Source of the DNA: Ostreococcus lucimarinus
Lineage: Eukaryota
Direction: 5' to 3' (one strand)
Assembly (NCBI GenBank): GCA_000092065.1
Contig: CP000592.1
DNA length: 64,000 nucleotides
The notes below the pieces were generated by a model that did not search any database, had not been told where the DNA came from, and worked only from the letters and a program-made list of their open reading frames with translations. The position numbers were made by a program, and so were the translations under genes. Shown here in pieces: positions 48,433 to 57,670 of this stretch (within the stretch, counting starts at the first letter, position 1; each line of letters starts with the position of its first letter).

Positions 48433-49475
48433 ATGGCGACGAAGTCGTTGGTGATGACGACGCGCGATGATCGCGCGCTGACGCGGTCGACGCGCGACGC
48501 GGAGACGATCGCGACGCTGCAGCGAGAGCTCAGCTCGAGTGAAATAGAACGCGCGACGACGGCGCGCGCGATGGCGGCGCACGAAGAGCGCGCGCGAGAG
48601 CTCGAACGCGCGTTGGCGCGCGCCGAAGACGCGCTGGAGGAAGCGACGAGCGAGATGGAGACGAAGGAGCGAACGCGGAGGGACGGCGCCGAACGCCTGG
48701 CGCGACGATACGAGGCGTTGGCGCGGCGAGTGGAGGAGACCGAACGCGCGGCGAGGCGCGAGCGAGAGGAGTGCGTGATGTATAAAACGGAATGTGAGAG
48801 CCTCAGACAGGCACTGGAGGCTTCGACGCGGGAATTAGGGGCGATGCAGGTGGACGCCGCGCGCGGGAAATCGGCGGCGAGCGAGGCAAAGAATTTTAAA
48901 AGAGAGATTGACAGAGCGCGACGAGAGAAAGACGCGGCGATGAGCGCAATTAGAGCCGAGTTGGCGGATGCGCGGCGGCGGGCAACGTCGTTGGAGGCAT
49001 CGAGCACGGAGGTTAAAAGGATATTGGGCGACGCGTTGGGGGAGGAGTTGGGCGAGCGCGACGCCGCGACGGTGGCGGCGAGACGCGTGGCCGACGCGAT
49101 GCGCGACGCCAAGGCGCGATTGCAAGCGCTCGAACGCGTTCAACACGCGAATAGTGCAGATGGTGCGAGCACGCTCAGAAACTCGACTTCTTCGGCGATG
49201 GAAGACGACGTCGCACTCGTCGCCGAGACGGAGGCCGCGCTCGAAGAGGCCCTCGGCACCGCGCGACGATGGAAGTCAGCGGCCGAGAAAGAGCGCACTT
49301 CGCGAGAACGCATCGAAAATGAGCTCGACGACTGTCGCTCGTCCCTCGCGCGCGCGATCGAGGAAAGGTCTCGAGCCGAATCGTACGAGCGCGAGCTCGA
49401 AGCCGTCGTCGAGCGACTCGGCGATAGAATTCGCGCCCTGGAATCCGCGTCGCCCGCCGTGCGCCGCGACAACGT

Positions 49476-49506
<31 letters not shown>

Positions 49507-49781: not shown

Positions 49782-51038
49782 ATGCAGACGACCGCGATCC
49801 CGTCGCGAACCGCGGCGCGCGCGCGCGGGTGGACGAGAGCGCGAGAGGGCGCGCGCAACGCGACCATCGTGCGCGCTAACCCACCCGGAAGTGCGCGACG
49901 CGAAGGCGTCGCGCGACGCGGCGACGACGCGGCGACGACGCGCGCGATCGCGGTGGATGAAAGAAAGTCATCATCATCGACGGACGCCGTTCGCGAGTGC
50001 GCCGTGGGGGACGCGCTGCGGGTGCGATTGCCCGGGGAGACTCGAGCGAGTTATCTAGAGGTGGAGGCGACGAGCGCGAACCGCGCGCGCGGAGCGTTTC
50101 GAGGCGTCGATGCGGTGCTCGAGGTGTGCGAAGAGACGAATAGAGTGTTGTTGAGTGAAATTGTCGATGGGAACTTTGGAAAGGATGGGAAGAGGAAGTC
50201 AACGCGATTGTTGCGGGAAAGGTTTACGCGCTCGTACGACGGTTTGACGACGACGCTGGAGACGCTGCGAAGGTCGGGAGAATATCCGGCGCCTGGGTTT
50301 TCGGGCGCGATCGAGTGCGAAGAGGTGTCGAGACTTTGTAGTTTGGAAGAGTTACGCGCGCGAGTTTCGGAAGATGCGAGCTTTTGGGCCGACGGAAGTC
50401 CGAAAGATTTCCAAGGCTTGTCCGCGGACGAGCACGCAACGCTCAACGCCGGGGAGATTTTGGCGTTTCAGTGTGGATGCAGACCGATGTGCATGGTGCA
50501 GCTGTGGACTGGTTGGGAAGACGATTTGGGTCGACGACAAAGCATTGACATGCCTTTTGTCGCCCGATTGCTGAAGGAAATCACCGAAGACGATGAAATT
50601 GGTGTCATCACCGTCGCGCCTCCAGGGGCATCAGAAAAGCTCGGAATCACCGCGCTGTTGTATCCTCGAAAGTCGCCGTATAAAGAGCGCGCGAAGCTGC
50701 TCGCCTCTTTCGGCGCCCAAGCAGCCATCGTGGCGGGTTCAGCGTACTATCAAACGCTGATAGGACGGTGCCTCGGGTACAAGGAGGAGAACATCAATGC
50801 GCACGTGCAGCAATACAACAAGGGCGTCGGCGTCTCGAAGCAAATCAGCGACTTGGTCGAAGAAGAATTGGCCGGGCTTAGCGCAGTTCCCGCGTCAAAA
50901 CGGTGGAGAGATGGGTTCGCGGTCGCTACGGTGTCGAACGACAAGTCGCGAAGTCGAAGGAAAAAGAAGTCCAATCGAGCGTCCTCAAACTTGGAGGACG
51001 TGGAAATGATGTTTGGCCGACGCGGGCGCGCAAAGTAG
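49782..51038 (+). CDS. Hypothetical protein (418 aa)
   Basis: Real ATG 49782. The N-terminal 60 aa are presequence-like. The conserved-looking core is GEILAFQCGCRPMCMVQLWTGWEDD...GVITVAPPGASEKLGITALLYPRKSPYKERAKLLASFGAQAAIVAGSAYYQTLIGRCLGYKEENI. No family assigned. Confidence 0.45.
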   Translation: MQTTAIPSRTAARARGWTRAREGARNATIVRANPPGSARREGVARRGDDAATTRAIAVDERKSSSSTDAVRECAVGDALRVRLPGETRASYLEVEATSANRARGAFRGVDAVLEVCEETNRVLLSEIVDGNFGKDGKRKSTRLLRERFTRSYDGLTTTLETLRRSGEYPAPGFSGAIECEEVSRLCSLEELRARVSEDASFWADGSPKDFQGLSADEHATLNAGEILAFQCGCRPMCMVQLWTGWEDDLGRRQSIDMPFVARLLKEITEDDEIGVITVAPPGASEKLGITALLYPRKSPYKERAKLLASFGAQAAIVAGSAYYQTLIGRCLGYKEENINAHVQQYNKGVGVSKQISDLVEEELAGLSAVPASKRWRDGFAVATVSNDKSRSRRKKKSNRASSNLEDVEMMFGRRGRAK

Positions 51039-51077: not shown

Positions 51078-54000
51078 CTATGAGAGCGTGCCTATTGCTT
51101 CGAAGTCATTCAGCATGTTACGCGAATGCACGGCTTCGAAGATTTTCGTACCGTCGCCTCCGCCGTATCGCAAAATTGCGTCGGCGCCGGCGGGATGGTC
51201 ATCCAAGAAATCGGTAAAGTCGTAAACACGGCCGTACAAAGCCACCCAGCAGTCATCCGCGGAGGCGTGTTTAGCGAGTTCCTCATGCGTGATAATGCGA
51301 TCTCGTTTCGGTATCTTCAGTTTCGGTACCTCCGTCGCGGCAGATGGCGCATCCGTGTTTGAGACAATGTTCACGTTCGTGCCGACGAGCCGCCCGAACA
51401 CCGCGCACTCAGTGAGCGCATTTCCACCTAGACGATTCTTGCCGTGCACACCACCGATGATTTCCCCAGCGGCAAATAATCCAGCGACGGGCGTTCCATC
51501 AGCTCGCACGACTCGTCCATAGCTATCAACCTTGACACCACCCATGGTGTAATGTACCACTGGCGTGACTCGCCCGGCGTAAAACGGCCCAGAAACTTTG
51601 AAAGGCGCGTTAGCAAAGTATGTCTTGTTGAATTCATCGAGACCCGCATTGGCTTGGTCGTTGTACTGCTCCAACGTCGCACGAAGCTGAGACTCCGTCG
51701 TGTTTCCACGGACGGACATCCACTTCGTCAAATCCGCGAGTGTGTCGAACTTGGTCATCAGGTTCTTCTTCACGTAAAGCGGCACATGCTTGTTCGCTTC
51801 GCTCGCGCCTTTTTCATCAAGCAGTAACACGAAGTCGAGCTTTTCTGCGTCTTCTTCTTGCATGCGAGCGCTGACGTAATCACGCGTGCCAAGCTCGTTG
51901 GCAAATCGTTTACCCGAACGATTCAATAGAATACCACCCGCACCTCGGAGTAATTCTGCGGCAAGCGTTTTCGTGTCGGCGCCCTCGTCTTCAGGATTGA
52001 TGAAGCCCGTGGGATGTACTTGAACGCGTTGCATGTCAACAGCACCAGCGCCTAATCCAAAAGCGAGCTTGTGTCCATCACCGGTCGTGCCTTTCGTGTT
52101 TGTCGTGGCGAACTTTGTGAGCTGAGGCGCGTACTTGCTCAGTAATGCGTCTTCTCCTTGCTTGTCATTCGAGTATCCCCCGGTGGCGAGCAGCACGTGG
52201 CGTGCTCTGACTTCGCCGCCTACATTACTACCATTCGAACCATCGGATGGCGTCCAACGCACGGCATTGATCGCGCCATCTTCAGCAGTGATTATTTCAC
52301 TCACCCTAGCCTTTTTCACCACTTTAAATCGCCCAGATTGAATGTAGTCTTCGCATTTCCCTTTGAGTGCGAAAACGAGAGACGATCCCGCCATACCTTC
52401 GTTCGGTCTGTACGTACGAGCGTAGCTGTGCCCTCCAAGCCTCGAAAGTAGGCTTAAATCGGCGCCAACGCGTCGACGAAGCCATTCAATCGTGGCACCA
52501 GCCTGGCTAGTGAGCGTCGGGATATGTTCGACGGTTTCGGGATCGAGATTTTCGCGACCGTTGCCGTTTCCGTAGGAGGATTTTTCGCAGTCGTCTGAAT
52601 ACGCTTCGACGCTGTCGGGATTATCTTCAAACGAAGTCTTGATCACTCCGTTGATCCCCGAAGACGCCCACTGAGAATTACCACCAACATATGCCTCTTT
52701 CTCTACCAACGTCACCCTACCGCCACGATCGAGCACGGTGAGTGAAGCCGTCAAGCCCGCTAAACCGCCGCCGACGACGACCAAGTCAACCGGGGGGTCA
52801 TCTTCAATGCCGCCTTTGGGTAGGGGTACGCCGAGTGCGCGAAGCGCGTGTTCGATGAATCTCCACGGCATGCTCTCAGCGTAGTACTTTGCTAAGACGA
52901 CAACTTTTGGATTATCCTCGAGCATTGCGCTCACGATGGCTGCCTCTGATTCTGGCGTCAACGCGCCAGATTTCACGTACGTCGCGGTAGCTGCAATCGC
53001 CGCCTCCAGTGGGCTCTGCTCCACCTTTTGACCGCCTTCAGTTTCGCGCAGATGTAAACCAACGCTTTCCAAATCTACTGAGCTCTTCAACGCGTCCTGC
53101 CTCGCCGCATTCATGAGTTCGGGCACTTTGCGAATGGCGTGACTAAACTTTGCAATGGTGTTCACAAGAGCCACCACCTCTTGCTTGTTCAAAGAAGACT
53201 CCAAGAGATCTTCGGGCAAGAGCAAGACTTTCAACGCCGAACCAAGACCCAAGAGTTGAAGTTTACCGTGAAGCTTGCACTTTTGACACGAAATGCAGTC
53301 CATGACTTCGCTAATGTTCAAGAAGATGTCTTTGAACTGGCTCTTCAGCGACACCGGCGCGAGAAGCTCTTCTCCCACTCCGCTGATCATTCCCGAGTTC
53401 GCACTCAACGTCGACTGCACATCGCGAAAAAGAGACTTTTCATCGAAAGCACCGAAGACATCGCGACAAGACGACAAAATGTGGCTTTCCAGCAAGCGAC
53501 TCATCAAAGCGTGCGTTCGCTCGTCCTCTTCGGCGTCTTGACCGATGCGAACGTCCATCTTCGACAGCGCCGGGGCCGCCTTACGAAGCGCTCTCAAGAG
53601 GACGACGAAAGAAAAGTGCAAGTTTTTCAGACGTTCTGGGTGCTTGGCGAATATTTCCACGAACTTTTTGGGATCGCTTCCCCACTCCGTTTCCCCGAGC
53701 GCGCGTTTCGGAGGCTTGGAGTGAAGCGCGATGTGGATGTTGATGCTCGAATGCATGCCGGACAAAAGGCGATACAGCACCCGCTCTTCGTAGCACATTT
53801 CATCCACGCTCGACGCCGACTTTAAGCAATTCTCTTCGTAAATGGCCCGCCAAACGTGCGATCCGTTGTATCCAGTCCATCGCTCTGGATTCAGCTGCAA
53901 GTTTACGTACTCTGTTTGCTCCTCGGGCGCAAACTTGTGGCACATGTCCGTCCAAAACGTCGGCAAATCCTCATCCGAGCATTCCGTTTCCGGGACGTCG

Positions 54001-54593
54001 ATGGACGTCAACGCCTCCGCCTCGGGCGTACTGATGGTTCGATCAACGCTATCCGTCACCGGGCTCCGCAGCGTCGGTTCCGAGCCATCCTTATGTTCCA
54101 AATCTAGCGAGCACATCGTCTTCGGCGGCGACGCCGACGACGACGACGCGAACGGGGCGGAAGAAAAACCACCACCGCCGTGACCACCGTCACCGAACGC
54201 CGCGGTCGCACCGGACGGCGCCTCGCACGACGGCTCCGTCTCCGTCTTCGTCTCCGCGCCTTCCGTCGCCTTCCAAAACTTACACGTCCGTTTCAAATCC
54301 ACTTGAAACAACCTAAAATACGTCGTATTCGTCAACTCACTGAGAATAGAGTGTAACTGCGCCTCGTTCGCGCCCTCGACGTCCTCCACGTCGCACGACG
54401 CGTCCCCGACCGCGCCTCGCACCGCGTCGCGCGAGCGCGTCTCGCCTTCGCCTTCCCCTTCGCCCGTCGCCACCCCCGCGCCCCGCGCGCCGACGCTCGA
54501 CGCCACCGCGACGACCGCGATCGCGCCCACGAGCACCATCCACCATCGTCCGCGTCGTTCGCGTCCGCGTCCGCGCGTCCGCGTCGTCGCCAT
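51078..54593 (-). CDS. Single-ORF fusion: signal-anchor + ERO1 (endoplasmic oxidoreductin-1) + FAD-dependent soluble fumarate reductase (flavocytochrome/OSM1-like) + C-terminal cytochrome b5 domain
   Basis: N-terminus [36 protein letters not shown] is a signal peptide or anchor. ERO1 region: [68 protein letters not shown], and the CxxCxxC active site [34 protein letters not shown] Rossmann motif [16 protein letters not shown]. Fumarate-reductase/SDH-flavoprotein-type stretches [43 protein letters not shown]. Cytochrome b5 HPAG motif in [57 protein letters not shown]. Uninterrupted 3516-nt frame from ATG 54591-54593; the track ORF extends to 54923 with no ATG. Confidence 0.75.
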
Positions 54594-54630: not shown

Positions 54631-54700
54631 ACCGAACCGCGCCGAACCGCGCCGAACCGCGCCGAACCGCGCCGAACCGCGCCGAACCGCGCCGAACCGA
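54631..54700. repeat. Tandem 10-nt repeat (GCCGAACCGC)x6-7, immediately upstream of the ERO1-fusion gene
   Basis: accgaaccgcgccgaaccgcgccgaaccgcgccgaaccgcgccgaaccgcgccgaaccgaaccgatccgc seen directly. Its reverse complement carries GGTTCGG units, as does the 15895-15921 repeat. Confidence 0.7.
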
Positions 54701-55294
54701 ACCGATCCGCGACGCCCGCCCGCCCCCTCGCCCGCGCCCCCCCGCGCGCGCGTCGCTCGCGTCGCGCGATGCCGCCGCGATCGGTCGCCCGCGCCGTCTC
54801 CATCGCACATTCGTCGATCGCTCGTTCGCGTCGATCGACGATCGACCGATCGCCCGTTCGACGCGCGATCGGTCGAACGGCCCTCGGGGGCGAAACACAC
54901 CACCGCGGGCGGACCCGAAACACCGCGACAGCGGACCAAACGATGTTACGTATTTAACATTCACTTTACACTAGATGGTATTTTCCGCGACTCGCCGATC
55001 TCGACACGCGCCCGACGTCTTTCGGTCGCCGTTTCGCGCCGCGCGACGACGGCGGCGACGACGCCGCGCGACGGCGACGACGCCGCGCGACGCGACGCGA
55101 CGCGAAGAGTCGACGCTCGACGCTCGACGCTCGACGCGCGCGCGTCGCGACGCGTCGACGCGTTCGGCGCGCGTCGAGCGGCTCGGATCGGAGTTCGTTG
55201 GGCGCCGCCGCCGATCGACGATCGCGCGGGCGCGACGCGGATTCGAGGGCGCGCGCGACGCGCGGCGACGAGCGATCGACGACGATCGTCGACG

Positions 55295-56224
55295 ATGGGG
55301 AGGGGGACGGGGAGCGACGCGACGGCGCGGGCGGCGGAGGCGAGGACGAGGGCGCGGGACGACGACGCGAGGGCGGACGCGCGGGGCGACGCGAACGCGA
55401 ACGCGAACGCGAACGCGAACGCGAACGCGAACGCGGCGAGACCGCCGTATGCGGCGATGACGGTGTATCCGGCGGTGTACGGGGCGTACGATGCGATGCG
55501 AGCGATGTCGCCGATGACGTACGACGCGTACGCGGGCGCGGCGCGCGCGGTGGCGGTGCCGGGGGATTCGTTTTCGAGACAGATTCAGGAGCGGGCGTAC
55601 GCGAGCGCGTTTACGTTTACGCGGCAGTGGAATTATTTGCAACACGCGGCGGCGGCGCAGCACGCGGCGTTCGCGTCGGGGAGTCGTGGGGGTGGAACGA
55701 TGATGGATCTTCTCGCCGCCACCGGTTCGGCGGCGGCTGAGCGCGATATCGGCGTCGAGCGCGAGGTGGAGCTGAGCAAGCGACAGCGGTTGGTGTGGAC
55801 GCCGCAACTGCACGCGCAATTCATCGCGGCGGTGCAAAAGCTCGGGGTTAAGACGGCGGTGCCGAAGGCGATTATGAAAATAATGAATGTCAAAGGGTTG
55901 ACGCGTGAAAACGTCGCTTCGCATTTGCAGAAGTATCGTCTGACGCTCAAACGAGCGCAGGATAGCTCTGAATCGACCCGGGCGTCGGGAGACGCGACAG
56001 ACGCGAAGAGAAGCGACGTCCGCGCGGGACGTAAGAGGAAAGATCGCGAAGAAAAAGGTAAAACCAACAGTGGAAGCGGCCAGGGAAGCGGCCAGGGAAG
56101 TGACGGTGGAAGTGCCGAGCATAGCGCGAGTGAAAACCTCGAGAATCGCGCCAAGCGAATTTCTTCCAGCGAAGAAGAAGAGACGCGACAAATTACGCTC
56201 GCCGTCGACCACAACGACGAATAA
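55295..56224 (+). CDS. GARP (G2-like) Myb-type transcription factor
   Basis: The SHAQKYF-class single Myb repeat is [54 protein letters not shown], with the GARP hallmark LHxxFVxAV...SHLQKYR. N-terminal (AN)7 from (GCGAAC)7 at 55391-55432. ATG 55295. Confidence 0.7.
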
Positions 56225-56410: not shown

Positions 56411-57670
56411 TCACACTTTGTTTTGCTCCTCCTCGAGAAAGTAAATCACGGGTTTGAGCTCGAACGGAAGGGGAGAAGTATTGTCGTACGCGGGCAGATC
56501 AACTGGACGTTGCGACGGCGGTAGCGACGCGTACGCCGACGCCTTGGTTCGCTTCGTGTACTCGTCTCGCAACTCCTTGACGGTTTTCAGCGCGTAAAGC
56601 AGCATCGCGTACGCTCGAGGCGGCGACTCGGGCGAGCGAGATGAACGCTTGAGCTTGGACAAAATCACTCGAAAGCAAGCCTCCATGCGATCCCACGCCT
56701 CGGTGAGCTCGGCGATTTTTCTCGTCCAATACGTATCGTGCCACGCCGCGTGTGCTTCGCCTTGCAGGTGAAACATTCTAATCCATTGAAATTCAACCTC
56801 GCGATGGACGTCGGCTAAGAACTGTATCTGTTTCGCATCCAAAGGTTTATTCTCGCGCTCTAAGTCTGGTACAATTGCGAGCGCATCGATACACCGCCTT
56901 TTGATGTACTGGAACGTATCCTTGGCCACCACGGCGACTCGATGTGTCGAAGAATATCTCGCACTCGAGCCGGTGAGCACGGCGTGATGGTGAGTGGCGT
57001 TGAACTCACCACACATGTAATACGTCGCTTTATCCTCCAAAGGCACGCAAAGCACCTCGCACTCCGCGTTCAACGCCCTCAGCGCCACTCGCCAGTCTTT
57101 TCTCTCTGGCGCCTCGTATGTGTGATACACCGCCACGGTGGAGTTTTCTCGCAACGACGAATCGCTGTGCCAACTCACCGACGTCGTCCCGAGATCGAAC
57201 TTCTCCTCATTCCGTAGCTCTATTTCGCTCTCACCCTCTGTTTCCATGTAATTAATCAGCGTCACGTTGTATTCGCACTCACTCTCCGCGAACGCTCCGC
57301 CGAGCTTTTCGCATCGCTCTCGCGCGCTCCTCGTCAGCGTCTCGTTCAACCGTCTCACCACTTCGTACGCCTCCCGTCCGCGCCACGGTTGCGCAAACAG
57401 GCGTAACTTCTGATAATGATACGTCATTCCGTCCTCACCGAGCAGGCAGCGCCGCACGTACGTCGTGGACACTTTATTTCCGGCGGAAACGACGTCGTGC
57501 GTGAATTCGCCTCGGCTGCGCATGTCGTCGAACGCGCGTTCGACGTCGTCGTGAAGCGACGCGGGAAGCACCGAGGGCGCGTCCACGACGAAACCGCGGT
57601 AGTGCGCTCGATGGACGCGCGCGAACGGTTCGCCGTCCTCGGGTTCGAGCACGGAGGATGACGGCGACAT
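56411..57670 (-). CDS. FTO: FTO-family Fe(II)/2-oxoglutarate-dependent nucleic-acid demethylase homolog
   Basis: Extensive colinearity with human FTO: GMTYHYQKLRLFAQPW (GCTYKYLNTRLFTVPW), EYNVTLINYME (AYNVTLLNFMD), SVSWHSDSSLRENSTVAVYHTYE ([24 protein letters not shown]), YYMCGEFNATHHHAVLTGSSARYSSTHRVA ([30 protein letters not shown]), EVEFQWIRMFHLQGE (EVEFEWLRQFWFQGN), SPLPFEL (MPLPFDL). Iron ligands HxD...H and the C-terminal helical domain are retained. ATG 57668-57670. Confidence 0.85.
   Translation of the reverse strand: MSPSSSVLEPEDGEPFARVHRAHYRGFVVDAPSVLPASLHDDVERAFDDMRSRGEFTHDVVSAGNKVSTTYVRRCLLGEDGMTYHYQKLRLFAQPWRGREAYEVVRRLNETLTRSARERCEKLGGAFAESECEYNVTLINYMETEGESEIELRNEEKFDLGTTSVSWHSDSSLRENSTVAVYHTYEAPERKDWRVALRALNAECEVLCVPLEDKATYYMCGEFNATHHHAVLTGSSARYSSTHRVAVVAKDTFQYIKRRCIDALAIVPDLERENKPLDAKQIQFLADVHREVEFQWIRMFHLQGEAHAAWHDTYWTRKIAELTEAWDRMEACFRVILSKLKRSSRSPESPPRAYAMLLYALKTVKELRDEYTKRTKASAYASLPPSQRPVDLPAYDNTSPLPFELKPVIYFLEEEQNKV

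Follow-up and report, generated by a model that had tools for sequence, protein, structure and literature searches.

A single-gene fusion of ERO1, a soluble fumarate reductase and cytochrome b5 in Ostreococcus lucimarinus and other eukaryotes

Ever since yeast was seen to form disulfides anaerobically, it has been asked how the disulfide-generating flavoenzyme Ero1 is re-oxidised without O2, and the sole answer proposed so far, the fumarate reductase Osm1 acting with fumarate, rests on a weak in vitro interaction in one organism. This question is touched by a stretch of 64,000 nucleotides of the Ostreococcus lucimarinus genome (GenBank assembly GCA_000092065.1, contig CP000592.1), here called the window, in which one open reading frame (ORF) codes for an ERO1 domain, an Osm1-type fumarate reductase (FRD) and a cytochrome b5. 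This combination had been pointed out in a preliminary description of the window. Do the three parts belong to one real protein, and what would such a protein do?

According to Kim et al. (2018; PMC6242907), yeast Osm1, whose flavin adenine dinucleotide (FAD) is non-covalently bound, re-oxidises free flavins with fumarate via a second flavin pocket and, in vitro, also re-oxidises the FAD of Ero1. The binding of Osm1 to Ero1 is weak, with a dissociation constant of about 150-200 µM, docking sets Ero1 at the site of the N-terminal haem domain of flavocytochrome c3 (Fcc3), and Ero1, Osm1 and fumarate together keep thiol oxidation going after O2 is exhausted (PMC6242907). Moreover, synthetic lethality of ero1-1 and delta-osm1 is cited by Neal et al. 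(2017; PMC5638582).

The fusion gene and its reading frame

The single uninterrupted ORF of 1171 amino acids (aa) of the preliminary description was borne out by the ORF listing and the translation, which place it on the minus strand (Table 1); no strand had been given before. The predicted product of ~128 kDa, with two flavin domains and one haem domain, consists of a signal anchor, the ERO1 domain, a four-helix linker, the FRD domain and the C-terminal cytochrome b5, in this order. Each of the sequence motifs quoted earlier was found in the translated protein, and ERO1, FAD_binding_2 and Cyt-b5 were all confirmed by Pfam as full-length domains, with 293.1 bits against a curated cut-off of 27 for ERO1 and 259.2 bits against a cut-off of 20.4 for FAD_binding_2. 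The remaining Pfam matches were generic Rossmann-type families overlapping the FRD domain, and no NADH-binding domain of the cytochrome b5 reductase type was detected by Pfam in the 1171 aa.

Such an ORF might be an artefact: mis-assembly, a frameshift in sequencing or an overlooked intron or stop codon could have joined adjacent ERO1 and FRD-b5 genes. The RefSeq annotation of O. lucimarinus CCE9901 would agree with this, as it holds just a 'predicted protein, partial' of 561 aa for the FRD-b5 part (XP_001420806.1/ABO99099.1, same 90%-identity cluster). However, this model is an exact substring of the fusion protein (aa 604-1164), cut at both ends and without the ERO1 half, which is typical of homology-based truncation; the fusion is hidden in the reference annotation because XP_001420806.1 covers the FRD and b5 part only. 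Full-length ORFs with 99.7-99.9% identity over all 1153-1171 residues were found on independent metagenome contigs, one near-identical full-length ORF recurred on 13 metagenome contigs of up to 92 kb, and a 78%-identical orthologue was flanked by other genes on a 6.2-kb genomic contig. The orthologue of O. mediterraneus (UniRef A0A7S0PSI9, 1135 aa, 74% identity) is transcriptome-derived, and the whole fusion was present in complete transcripts of other species (O. mediterraneus, MMETSP, EukProt), as the claim of a single transcript for this architecture had predicted. There are no internal stops, the GC content at third codon positions falls smoothly from 5' to 3' without a break at the domain junctions, and a conserved linker module spans both halves. 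Since the unbroken ORF recurs on separate contigs, and at least 120 clusters spread over most supergroups contain it as well, often as complete transcripts, mis-assembly, frameshift and missed intron are effectively excluded, and the probability left to a merging artefact is negligible.

After the start ATG at 54593 come an Arg-rich stretch and a hydrophobic core of 19 residues. Upstream of this ATG, an open frame without stop reaches 54923, but all of this extension lies in the 5' leader of the gene, where the sequence is GC-rich and tandemly repeated. The frame stays open there because the decamer repeat GCGGTTCGGC contains no stop codons, which results in artefactually longer ORF calls. Three over-long calls (P0124, P0127 and P0128) diverge from the window within the repeat stretch and yield a repetitive peptide, and both copy number and sequence of the decamer vary among near-identical environmental strains. 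An alternative in-frame ATG at 54803 would prepend a 70-aa extension rich in Arg and Gly.

Domain chemistry and the proposed electron path

Residue conservation was counted over 121 family sequences. The ERO1 domain was aligned to human Ero1-alpha (3ahq/3ahr) with an E-value of 3e-45. The inner active-site cysteines C433, C436 and C439 were kept in 121/121 sequences, C104 aligns with human C85 and would form the equivalent of the C85-C391 pair, and the inner cysteines and C104 are invariant or 95% conserved. Additionally, C256 and C267 match the human C208/C241 pair. The window protein has R238, T240, W248, S278, H281, R321 and R334 at the positions that we take to be the FAD-binding residues R187, T189, W200, S252, H255, R287 and R300 of human Ero1-alpha (UniProt numbering). 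T240, W248, S278, H281 and R334 are invariant (121/121), R238 is present in 101 of the 121 sequences and R321 varies (R/H/Y).

The outer cysteines are altered. No canonical Cx4C (usually Cx4Cx4C) was found between C104 and the NPERW motif of the window protein; in place of this shuttle pair, C123 and C161 sit 38 residues apart on a low-complexity loop. Within the family, 82% of the sequences keep C123 and 98% keep C161, and the distance between the two ranges from 11 to ~120 residues. The earlier statement that the regulatory and active-site cysteines of ERO1 are present thus stands for the inner CISCQKC and falls for the canonical outer shuttle/regulatory Cx4C, which is missing in 64 of 65 fusion ERO1 domains and present in all 60 canonical ones. 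As the loop with C123 and C161 is predicted to be flexible (pLDDT <50), it is a plausible functional analogue of the shuttle. Three further cysteines, C205, C218 and C376, are (near-)invariant in the fusion family, have no counterpart role assigned in human Ero1-alpha and may form regulatory disulfides.

The altered cysteines could also mean that the ERO1-like domain is not an oxidase of protein disulfide isomerase (PDI) and acts on another thiol, either of low molecular weight or on a lineage-specific partner, or that it is a redox-sensing or regulatory module of a lumenal fumarate reductase. The loss of Cx4C, the variable distance of the replacement cysteines on a disordered low-complexity loop and the conserved cysteines without an assigned role would all agree with this. 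Nevertheless, the inner CxxCxxC, the equivalent of the C85-C391 pair (C104-C433) and the FAD-binding residues are conserved, and two conserved cysteines on a flexible loop still meet the needs of a shuttle. Moreover, the fusion lineages are missing among the named canonical ERO1 matches listed (see below), which hints that the fusion does the housekeeping job. A function other than PDI oxidation is therefore regarded as distinctly unlikely.

For the FRD domain, the closest solved relative was yeast Osm1 (5glg/5zyn; E 8.7e-80), followed by the Shewanella flavocytochromes c3 (~1e-58) and urocanate reductase (8.7e-45). A structure model was calculated with AlphaFold2 (AF2) from a 53-sequence family alignment, and Foldseek of this model gave a TM-score of 0.87 and a root mean square deviation of 2.7 Å for Osm1, which is the nearest solved structure by both sequence and fold, in line with the Osm1/flavocytochrome type assigned before. 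Other substrate classes of FRD-like enzymes, namely urocanate reductase, the 3-ketosteroid dehydrogenases and SdhA/FrdA/L-aspartate oxidase, were rejected due to far poorer scores than those of Osm1/Fcc3. The catalytic and substrate-binding residues H860, E880, R883, R904, H1014 and R1054 align with His365, Glu378, Arg381, Arg402, His504 and Arg545 of Fcc3, and R904 aligns with the position mutated in the Osm1 R326A entry 6ku6. Enzymes of the soluble FRD class work in the direction of fumarate reduction.

The free-flavin pocket of Osm1 was compared at K76, S78, P162, W295, F297, L298, N359, F362 and Y363, which were mapped by hand from the HMMER alignment. This pocket is not preserved across the fusion family: W295 is changed to T/G/S/N/V, F297 to T/I/V and F362 to H/L; the S, L and Y positions are retained. 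The position of N359 is taken by an invariant His (aa 936, KHVPLY motif), which may be a docking site for the b5 domain. The replacement of the pocket aromatics fits a different electron entry route.

The cytochrome b5 with HPAG that had been proposed for the C-terminus is matched by Pfam, and both axial haem ligands, H1133 (HPAG) and H1156, are invariant in 121/121 sequences. Its best solved relatives are the haem domain of flavocytochrome b2 and the b5 domain of CYB5R4, and b5 accompanies FRD in 120/120 fusion proteins examined. The invariance of residues of ERO1, FRD and b5 alike points to selection on all three activities within one polypeptide. In the AF2 model, with a mean predicted local distance difference test score (pLDDT) of 79.9 and a predicted template modelling score (pTM) of 0.56, well-folded domains are joined by disordered hinges at aa 507-524, which precedes the linker module, and at the FRD-b5 tether. 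The disordered tether and the low pTM despite the high mean pLDDT fit a mobile b5 domain. The four-helix linker module had no match in the Pfam scan and is homology-detectable in 82 of 120 fusion proteins.

On the basis of these domain assignments, the protein is probably an enzyme of the lumen of the endoplasmic reticulum (ER) that passes electrons from thiols to the FAD of ERO1, from there probably to the b5 haem, and then to the FAD of FRD and fumarate. The analysis shows the single ORF, the three domains, the intact and conserved residues, single transcripts in other species, secretory-type N-termini, a distinct ERO1 clade and predicted disorder in the loop and tethers, whereas the compartment, the direction and path of the electrons, the part played by b5 and the thiol donor are inferred. 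Substrate thiols, i.e. those of PDI-type oxidoreductases, would reduce the C123/C161 disulfide on its long flexible loop, which would hand the electrons to the inner C436-C439 disulfide beside the ERO1 FAD. The reduced ERO1 flavin would be re-oxidised intramolecularly, instead of or besides by O2, which would release H2O2. The electrons would reach the FRD FAD most likely through the tethered b5 haem as a built-in mediator, and fumarate would be reduced to succinate at the site formed by H860, R904, H1014 and R1054. The outcome would be a covalent, obligate counterpart of the loose yeast Ero1-Osm1 pair, with O2-independent and peroxide-free formation of disulfides. Fusion of ERO1 to the N-terminal side of FRD would remove the affinity problem of the yeast pair.

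Several points weigh against this path. The potential of a typical b5 is ~0 mV and that of the FAD of a typical soluble FRD ~-150 mV, so that transfer from haem to FAD would be uphill unless tuned. The thiol donor may differ, because the fusion lacks the Cx4C shuttle through which canonical ERO1 contacts PDI, and the pTM of the model gives no confident interdomain geometry. Since many carriers of the fusion are aerobic phototrophs, an anaerobic rationale is not obviously required. Finally, import of fumarate into the ER is unexplained, and no ER fumarate transporter is known according to Neal et al. (2017; PMC5638582).

The relation of the potentials, b5 usually lying above soluble-FRD FAD, would also suit a different role of the haem. 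Through b5, electrons could leave the protein for a separate one-electron acceptor (e.g. a second cytochrome, ferric iron or an acceptor of the monodehydroascorbate type), as in flavocytochrome b2, and fumarate would then be one of two sinks or a regulator. The nearest solved b5 relatives, flavocytochrome b2 and CYB5R4, are in favour of this, as is the position of b5 on a disordered tether at the extreme C-terminus, which is usual for built-in mediator cytochromes. However, the six fumarate-site residues are invariant in 121/121 sequences, which argues for selection on the fumarate chemistry, no candidate for a lumenal acceptor is known, and the constant company of b5 and FRD also fits a relay. 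An exit through b5 is therefore considered unlikely, and an intramolecular relay to fumarate is preferred.

The proposed enzyme resembles several known systems in part. Yeast Ero1p and Osm1 belong to the same two enzyme families and share the proposed compartment and chemistry (thiols to Ero1 FAD to FRD FAD to fumarate), but in yeast the two enzymes are not joined, a free-flavin shuttle pocket exists and haem is absent, whereas the fusion is covalent, has a linker and b5, has the pocket aromatics replaced and lacks Cx4C. Canonical ERO1 proteins (human Ero1-alpha/beta, yeast Ero1p, plant ERO1/2) agree with the fusion in the inner CxxCxxC, the equivalents of C85-C391 and C208-C241, the FAD residues and the secretory N-terminus. 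The fusion ERO1 differs from them as a distinct clade in a rough tree, without a Cx4C(x4C) cluster, with the additional invariant C218 and C376, and with ~680 further residues that bear FRD and b5. Shewanella flavocytochrome c3 (Fcc3/Ifc3) has the identical catalytic set and, like the fusion, a covalent electron donor N-terminal of the flavin domain; the donor of Fcc3 is a periplasmic domain with four c-type haems, whereas the fusion has a thiol-oxidising flavoenzyme as donor and a single b5 haem at the C-terminus. A b-type cytochrome tethered to a flavin or redox domain, comparable to the b5 of the fusion, is found in flavocytochrome b2, assimilatory nitrate reductase and cellobiose dehydrogenase, but these have other catalytic partners and none is joined to a domain that generates disulfides or coupled to the reduction of fumarate. 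The trypanosomatid NADH-dependent fumarate reductase (ApbE-like, FRD and cytochrome-b5-reductase-like) is also a eukaryotic multidomain soluble FRD, and several entries of the fusion family are auto-named 'fumarate reductase (NADH)' after it. In contrast to this enzyme, the fusion has neither an ApbE nor an NADH-binding b5-reductase domain; since ERO1 is the donor module, the 'NADH' name is very probably a mis-annotation.

Compartment and distribution across eukaryotes

In the window protein, seven R/K residues precede the hydrophobic core, which has a Kyte-Doolittle 19-residue mean of 2.16 at aa 18-36 and overlaps a helix of the AF2 model (aa 16-31). A signal-peptide-like hydrophobic core before the ERO1 domain was present in 76 of 94 M-initiated homologues, which supports the earlier suggestion of an N-terminal signal or anchor beside a lumenal ERO1. 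The sole other hydrophobic stretch, aa 602-620, was rejected as an internal transmembrane segment between ERO1 and FRD; it is the Rossmann GxGxxG strand-helix of FRD, a dinucleotide-binding element common to FAD enzymes of this class. With no further membrane span beyond the N-terminal core, all three domains would lie on one side of the membrane. Among the N-x-S/T sequons, N243-G-S/T is present in 121/121 sequences and N426-I-S/T in 120 of them, the latter corresponding to a glycosylated site of human Ero1-alpha. A C-terminal retention signal of the KDEL/HDEL type was not found across the family. A location in the ER lumen is the best inference from these features.

Another oxidising compartment, e.g. 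the mitochondrial intermembrane space or, in secondary algae, the periplastid space, was also weighed. The N-terminus of the O. lucimarinus protein is unusually Arg-rich before the core, as in the bipartite presequence of cytochrome b2, the in-frame ATG at 54803 would add the Arg/Gly-rich extension, and yeast Osm1 reaches both the ER and the intermembrane space via alternative starts (PMC5638582). Against this, most homologues have short classical signal peptides (median net charge of the n-region +2, core from about residue 11), the two N-glycosylation sequons are (near-)invariant and the upstream extension stems from the strain-variable tandem repeat. To our knowledge, all characterised ERO1 proteins are ER-lumenal. 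A location outside the ER lumen is thus very unlikely.

Homologues of the fusion protein fell into 277 clusters at E<=1e-10, and 120/120 of those listed carry ERO1, FAD_binding_2 and Cyt-b5. The fusion was found in the green lineage (Ostreococcus, Prasinococcus, Mesostigma), a cryptophyte (Guillardia), diatoms (Thalassiosira, Skeletonema, Stephanodiscus, Mediolabrus, Mayamaea, Fistulifera), labyrinthulomycetes (Hondaea, Mucochytrium, Aplanochytrium) and another stramenopile (MAST-4), Rhizaria (Norrisiella, Paulinella), diplonemids (Diplonema papillatum, D. ambulator, Rhynchopus, Namystynia), Amoebozoa (Pyxidicula, Copromyxa) and the choanoflagellate Savillea parva; the taxonomy of Savillea and Pyxidicula was looked up separately. 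Many entries are 'type:complete' Trinity or MMETSP transcripts, i.e. single mRNAs. By closest match, the sequences mostly sort according to organism: each of the two Amoebozoa has the other as its best match, and labyrinthulomycetes, diatoms and three of the four diplonemids each group among themselves, with the exception of Namystynia, whose best matches are Mamiellophyceae-like sequences and not other diplonemids. Such lineage-congruent grouping speaks against contamination and for inheritance that was mainly vertical. The architecture, which had been taken as unestablished, is therefore not rare, but it is neither annotated nor found described as a family; the source annotations read 'flavocytochrome c', 'fumarate reductase (NADH)', 'cytochrome b5 haem-binding domain-containing protein', 'succinate dehydrogenase flavoprotein subunit' or 'hypothetical protein' and never name it. 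The earlier proposal that the fusion fits a microalga meeting hypoxia or darkness proved too narrow, as heterotrophs from several supergroups carry it as well.

The ERO1 half with the linker was searched against 1.84 billion cluster representatives and matched 2287 proteins at E<=1e-3, 441 of them at E<=1e-30. Fusion-type proteins top this list, and canonical ERO1s (~450-550 aa) begin at about E 1e-58. A tree of 138 ERO1 domains was built by neighbour joining; it is rough, being distance-based and midpoint-rooted without an outgroup, with sampling biased to the query. In this tree, all 65 ERO1 domains of fusion proteins fall within one clade of 78. The other 13 members have ERO-only length, are probably truncated calls and lack Cx4C without exception, and the 60 sequences outside the clade are all ERO1-only and all have Cx4C. 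This pattern suggests that the fusion arose once and that the shuttle loop was remodelled along with it.

Canonical ERO1s were additionally collected with an ochrophyte query (Chrysoparadoxa) and a cluster look-up, which listed 120 matches with sparse naming. Those with names came from brown algae, xanthophytes, oomycetes, pelagophytes, chrysophytes, red algae, core chlorophytes, land plants, fungi, animals and Balamuthia. Among the 120 matches listed, there was no named canonical ERO1 from diatoms, labyrinthulomycetes, Mamiellophyceae, cryptophytes or diplonemids, and several of these lineages do have named NCBI entries in the fusion list. As weak negative evidence, this hints that the two ERO1 types may complement each other in distribution, the fusion being the housekeeping ER oxidase of those lineages. 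A more far-reaching reading is possible, although tentative: the fusion may be an ancient paralogue, dating from near the last eukaryotic common ancestor, and the only ER disulfide generator in diatoms, Mamiellophyceae, cryptophytes, labyrinthulomycetes and diplonemids, with folding constitutively wired via FAD, haem and FAD to fumarate. If so, disulfide formation in these groups would be O2-independent and peroxide-free, and an unrecognised exchange of fumarate and succinate across the ER membrane would be required.

Gene surroundings and significance

The features of the gene and its neighbours are listed in Table 1. No functional link of the fusion gene was seen to the neighbouring FTO homologue, Myb factor and unannotated ORF. 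FTO outside vertebrates is known from marine algae including Ostreococcus and diatoms, and the homologue found here is full-length. The N-terminal part of the Myb protein contains an (Ala-Asn)n run that stems from a hexanucleotide microsatellite, the opposite strand of which reads (Arg-Val)n. The stop codons of the fusion gene and the convergent ORF (51078 and 51038) are separated by 39 bp, an example of the extremely dense gene arrangement in this genome.

Table 1. Positions of the fusion gene, its domains and motifs, and the neighbouring genes in the window
Feature	Position	Strand	Basis
Complete coding sequence	51078..54593	minus	ORF listing, translation: 1171 codons + stop, uninterrupted
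Tandem decamer repeat GCGGTTCGGC, ~7 copies, in 5' leader	~54631..54706	minus	Lacks stop codons
N-terminus, aa 1-36: Arg-rich n-region, hydrophobic core aa 18-36; putative signal anchor or signal peptide	54486..54593	minus	Kyte-Doolittle, AF2
ERO1 domain (PF04137), aa 79-489	53127..54359	minus	Pfam E 3.9e-87, model positions 1-353 of 354
Outer-cysteine loop, aa 111-179, low-complexity (Gly/Ser/Ala/acidic), predicted disordered	54057..54263	minus	pLDDT <50
Inner active-site motif C433-I-S-C436-Q-K-C439	53277..53297	minus	Aligns with human C391/C394/C397
Four-helix linker module, aa 528-587, family-specific	52833..53012	minus	Predicted helices 528-541, 547-558, 562-572, 576-587; pLDDT ~85-93
Osm1/flavocytochrome-c-type soluble FRD domain (PF00890), aa 603-1060	51414..52787	minus	Pfam E 1.1e-76, positions 1-414 of 414
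Predicted flexible tether FRD-b5, aa 1083-1094	51312..51347	minus	pLDDT <50; family conservation 0.11
Cytochrome b5 haem domain (PF00173), aa 1102-1169	51087..51290	minus	Pfam E 9.7e-20, 70.8 bits vs cut-off 23.7
ORF, 358 aa, Glu/Arg/Ala-rich, coiled-coil-like, (Asp-Thr)n microsatellite-encoded tail	48433-49506	plus	No Pfam match
ORF, 418 aa, convergent with fusion gene	49782-51035	plus	No Pfam match
Myb/SHAQKYF-type DNA-binding protein	55295-56221	plus	PF00249 E 1.5e-08
FTO homologue	56414-57670	minus	FTO_NTD E 2.7e-86, FTO_CTD E 4.8e-66

The pairing of yeast Ero1 with Osm1 was known before, as were soluble FRDs that carry a haem donor domain (Fcc3) and enzymes in which b5 serves as a tethered mediator (flavocytochrome b2, nitrate reductase). 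Not found described are the covalent ERO1-FRD-b5 architecture, which is visible in domain databases, its near pan-eukaryotic distribution and the ERO1 clade without Cx4C. Full-text literature searches, with subscription-only literature outside their scope, returned no paper describing the fusion; papers naming both Ero1 and fumarate reductase did not concern a fusion, and none combined Ero1, fumarate reductase and cytochrome b5. Targeted reading of PMC6242907, PMC9516139, PMC5638582 and PMC6836876 likewise gave no hint of a natural fusion. The family exposes a systematic mis-annotation under names such as 'fumarate reductase (NADH)' and 'flavocytochrome c' and in short models such as XP_001420806.1.

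Because the catalytic residues are under selection and the fusion is conserved in most eukaryotic supergroups, it provides independent evolutionary evidence for the route from Ero1 to fumarate as real, ancient and widespread. As a single polypeptide, the fusion is a tractable system for measuring the electron path. A transport step for fumarate and succinate at the ER that is yet to be discovered would be implied, and oxidative folding in ecologically dominant phytoplankton may proceed free of peroxide.

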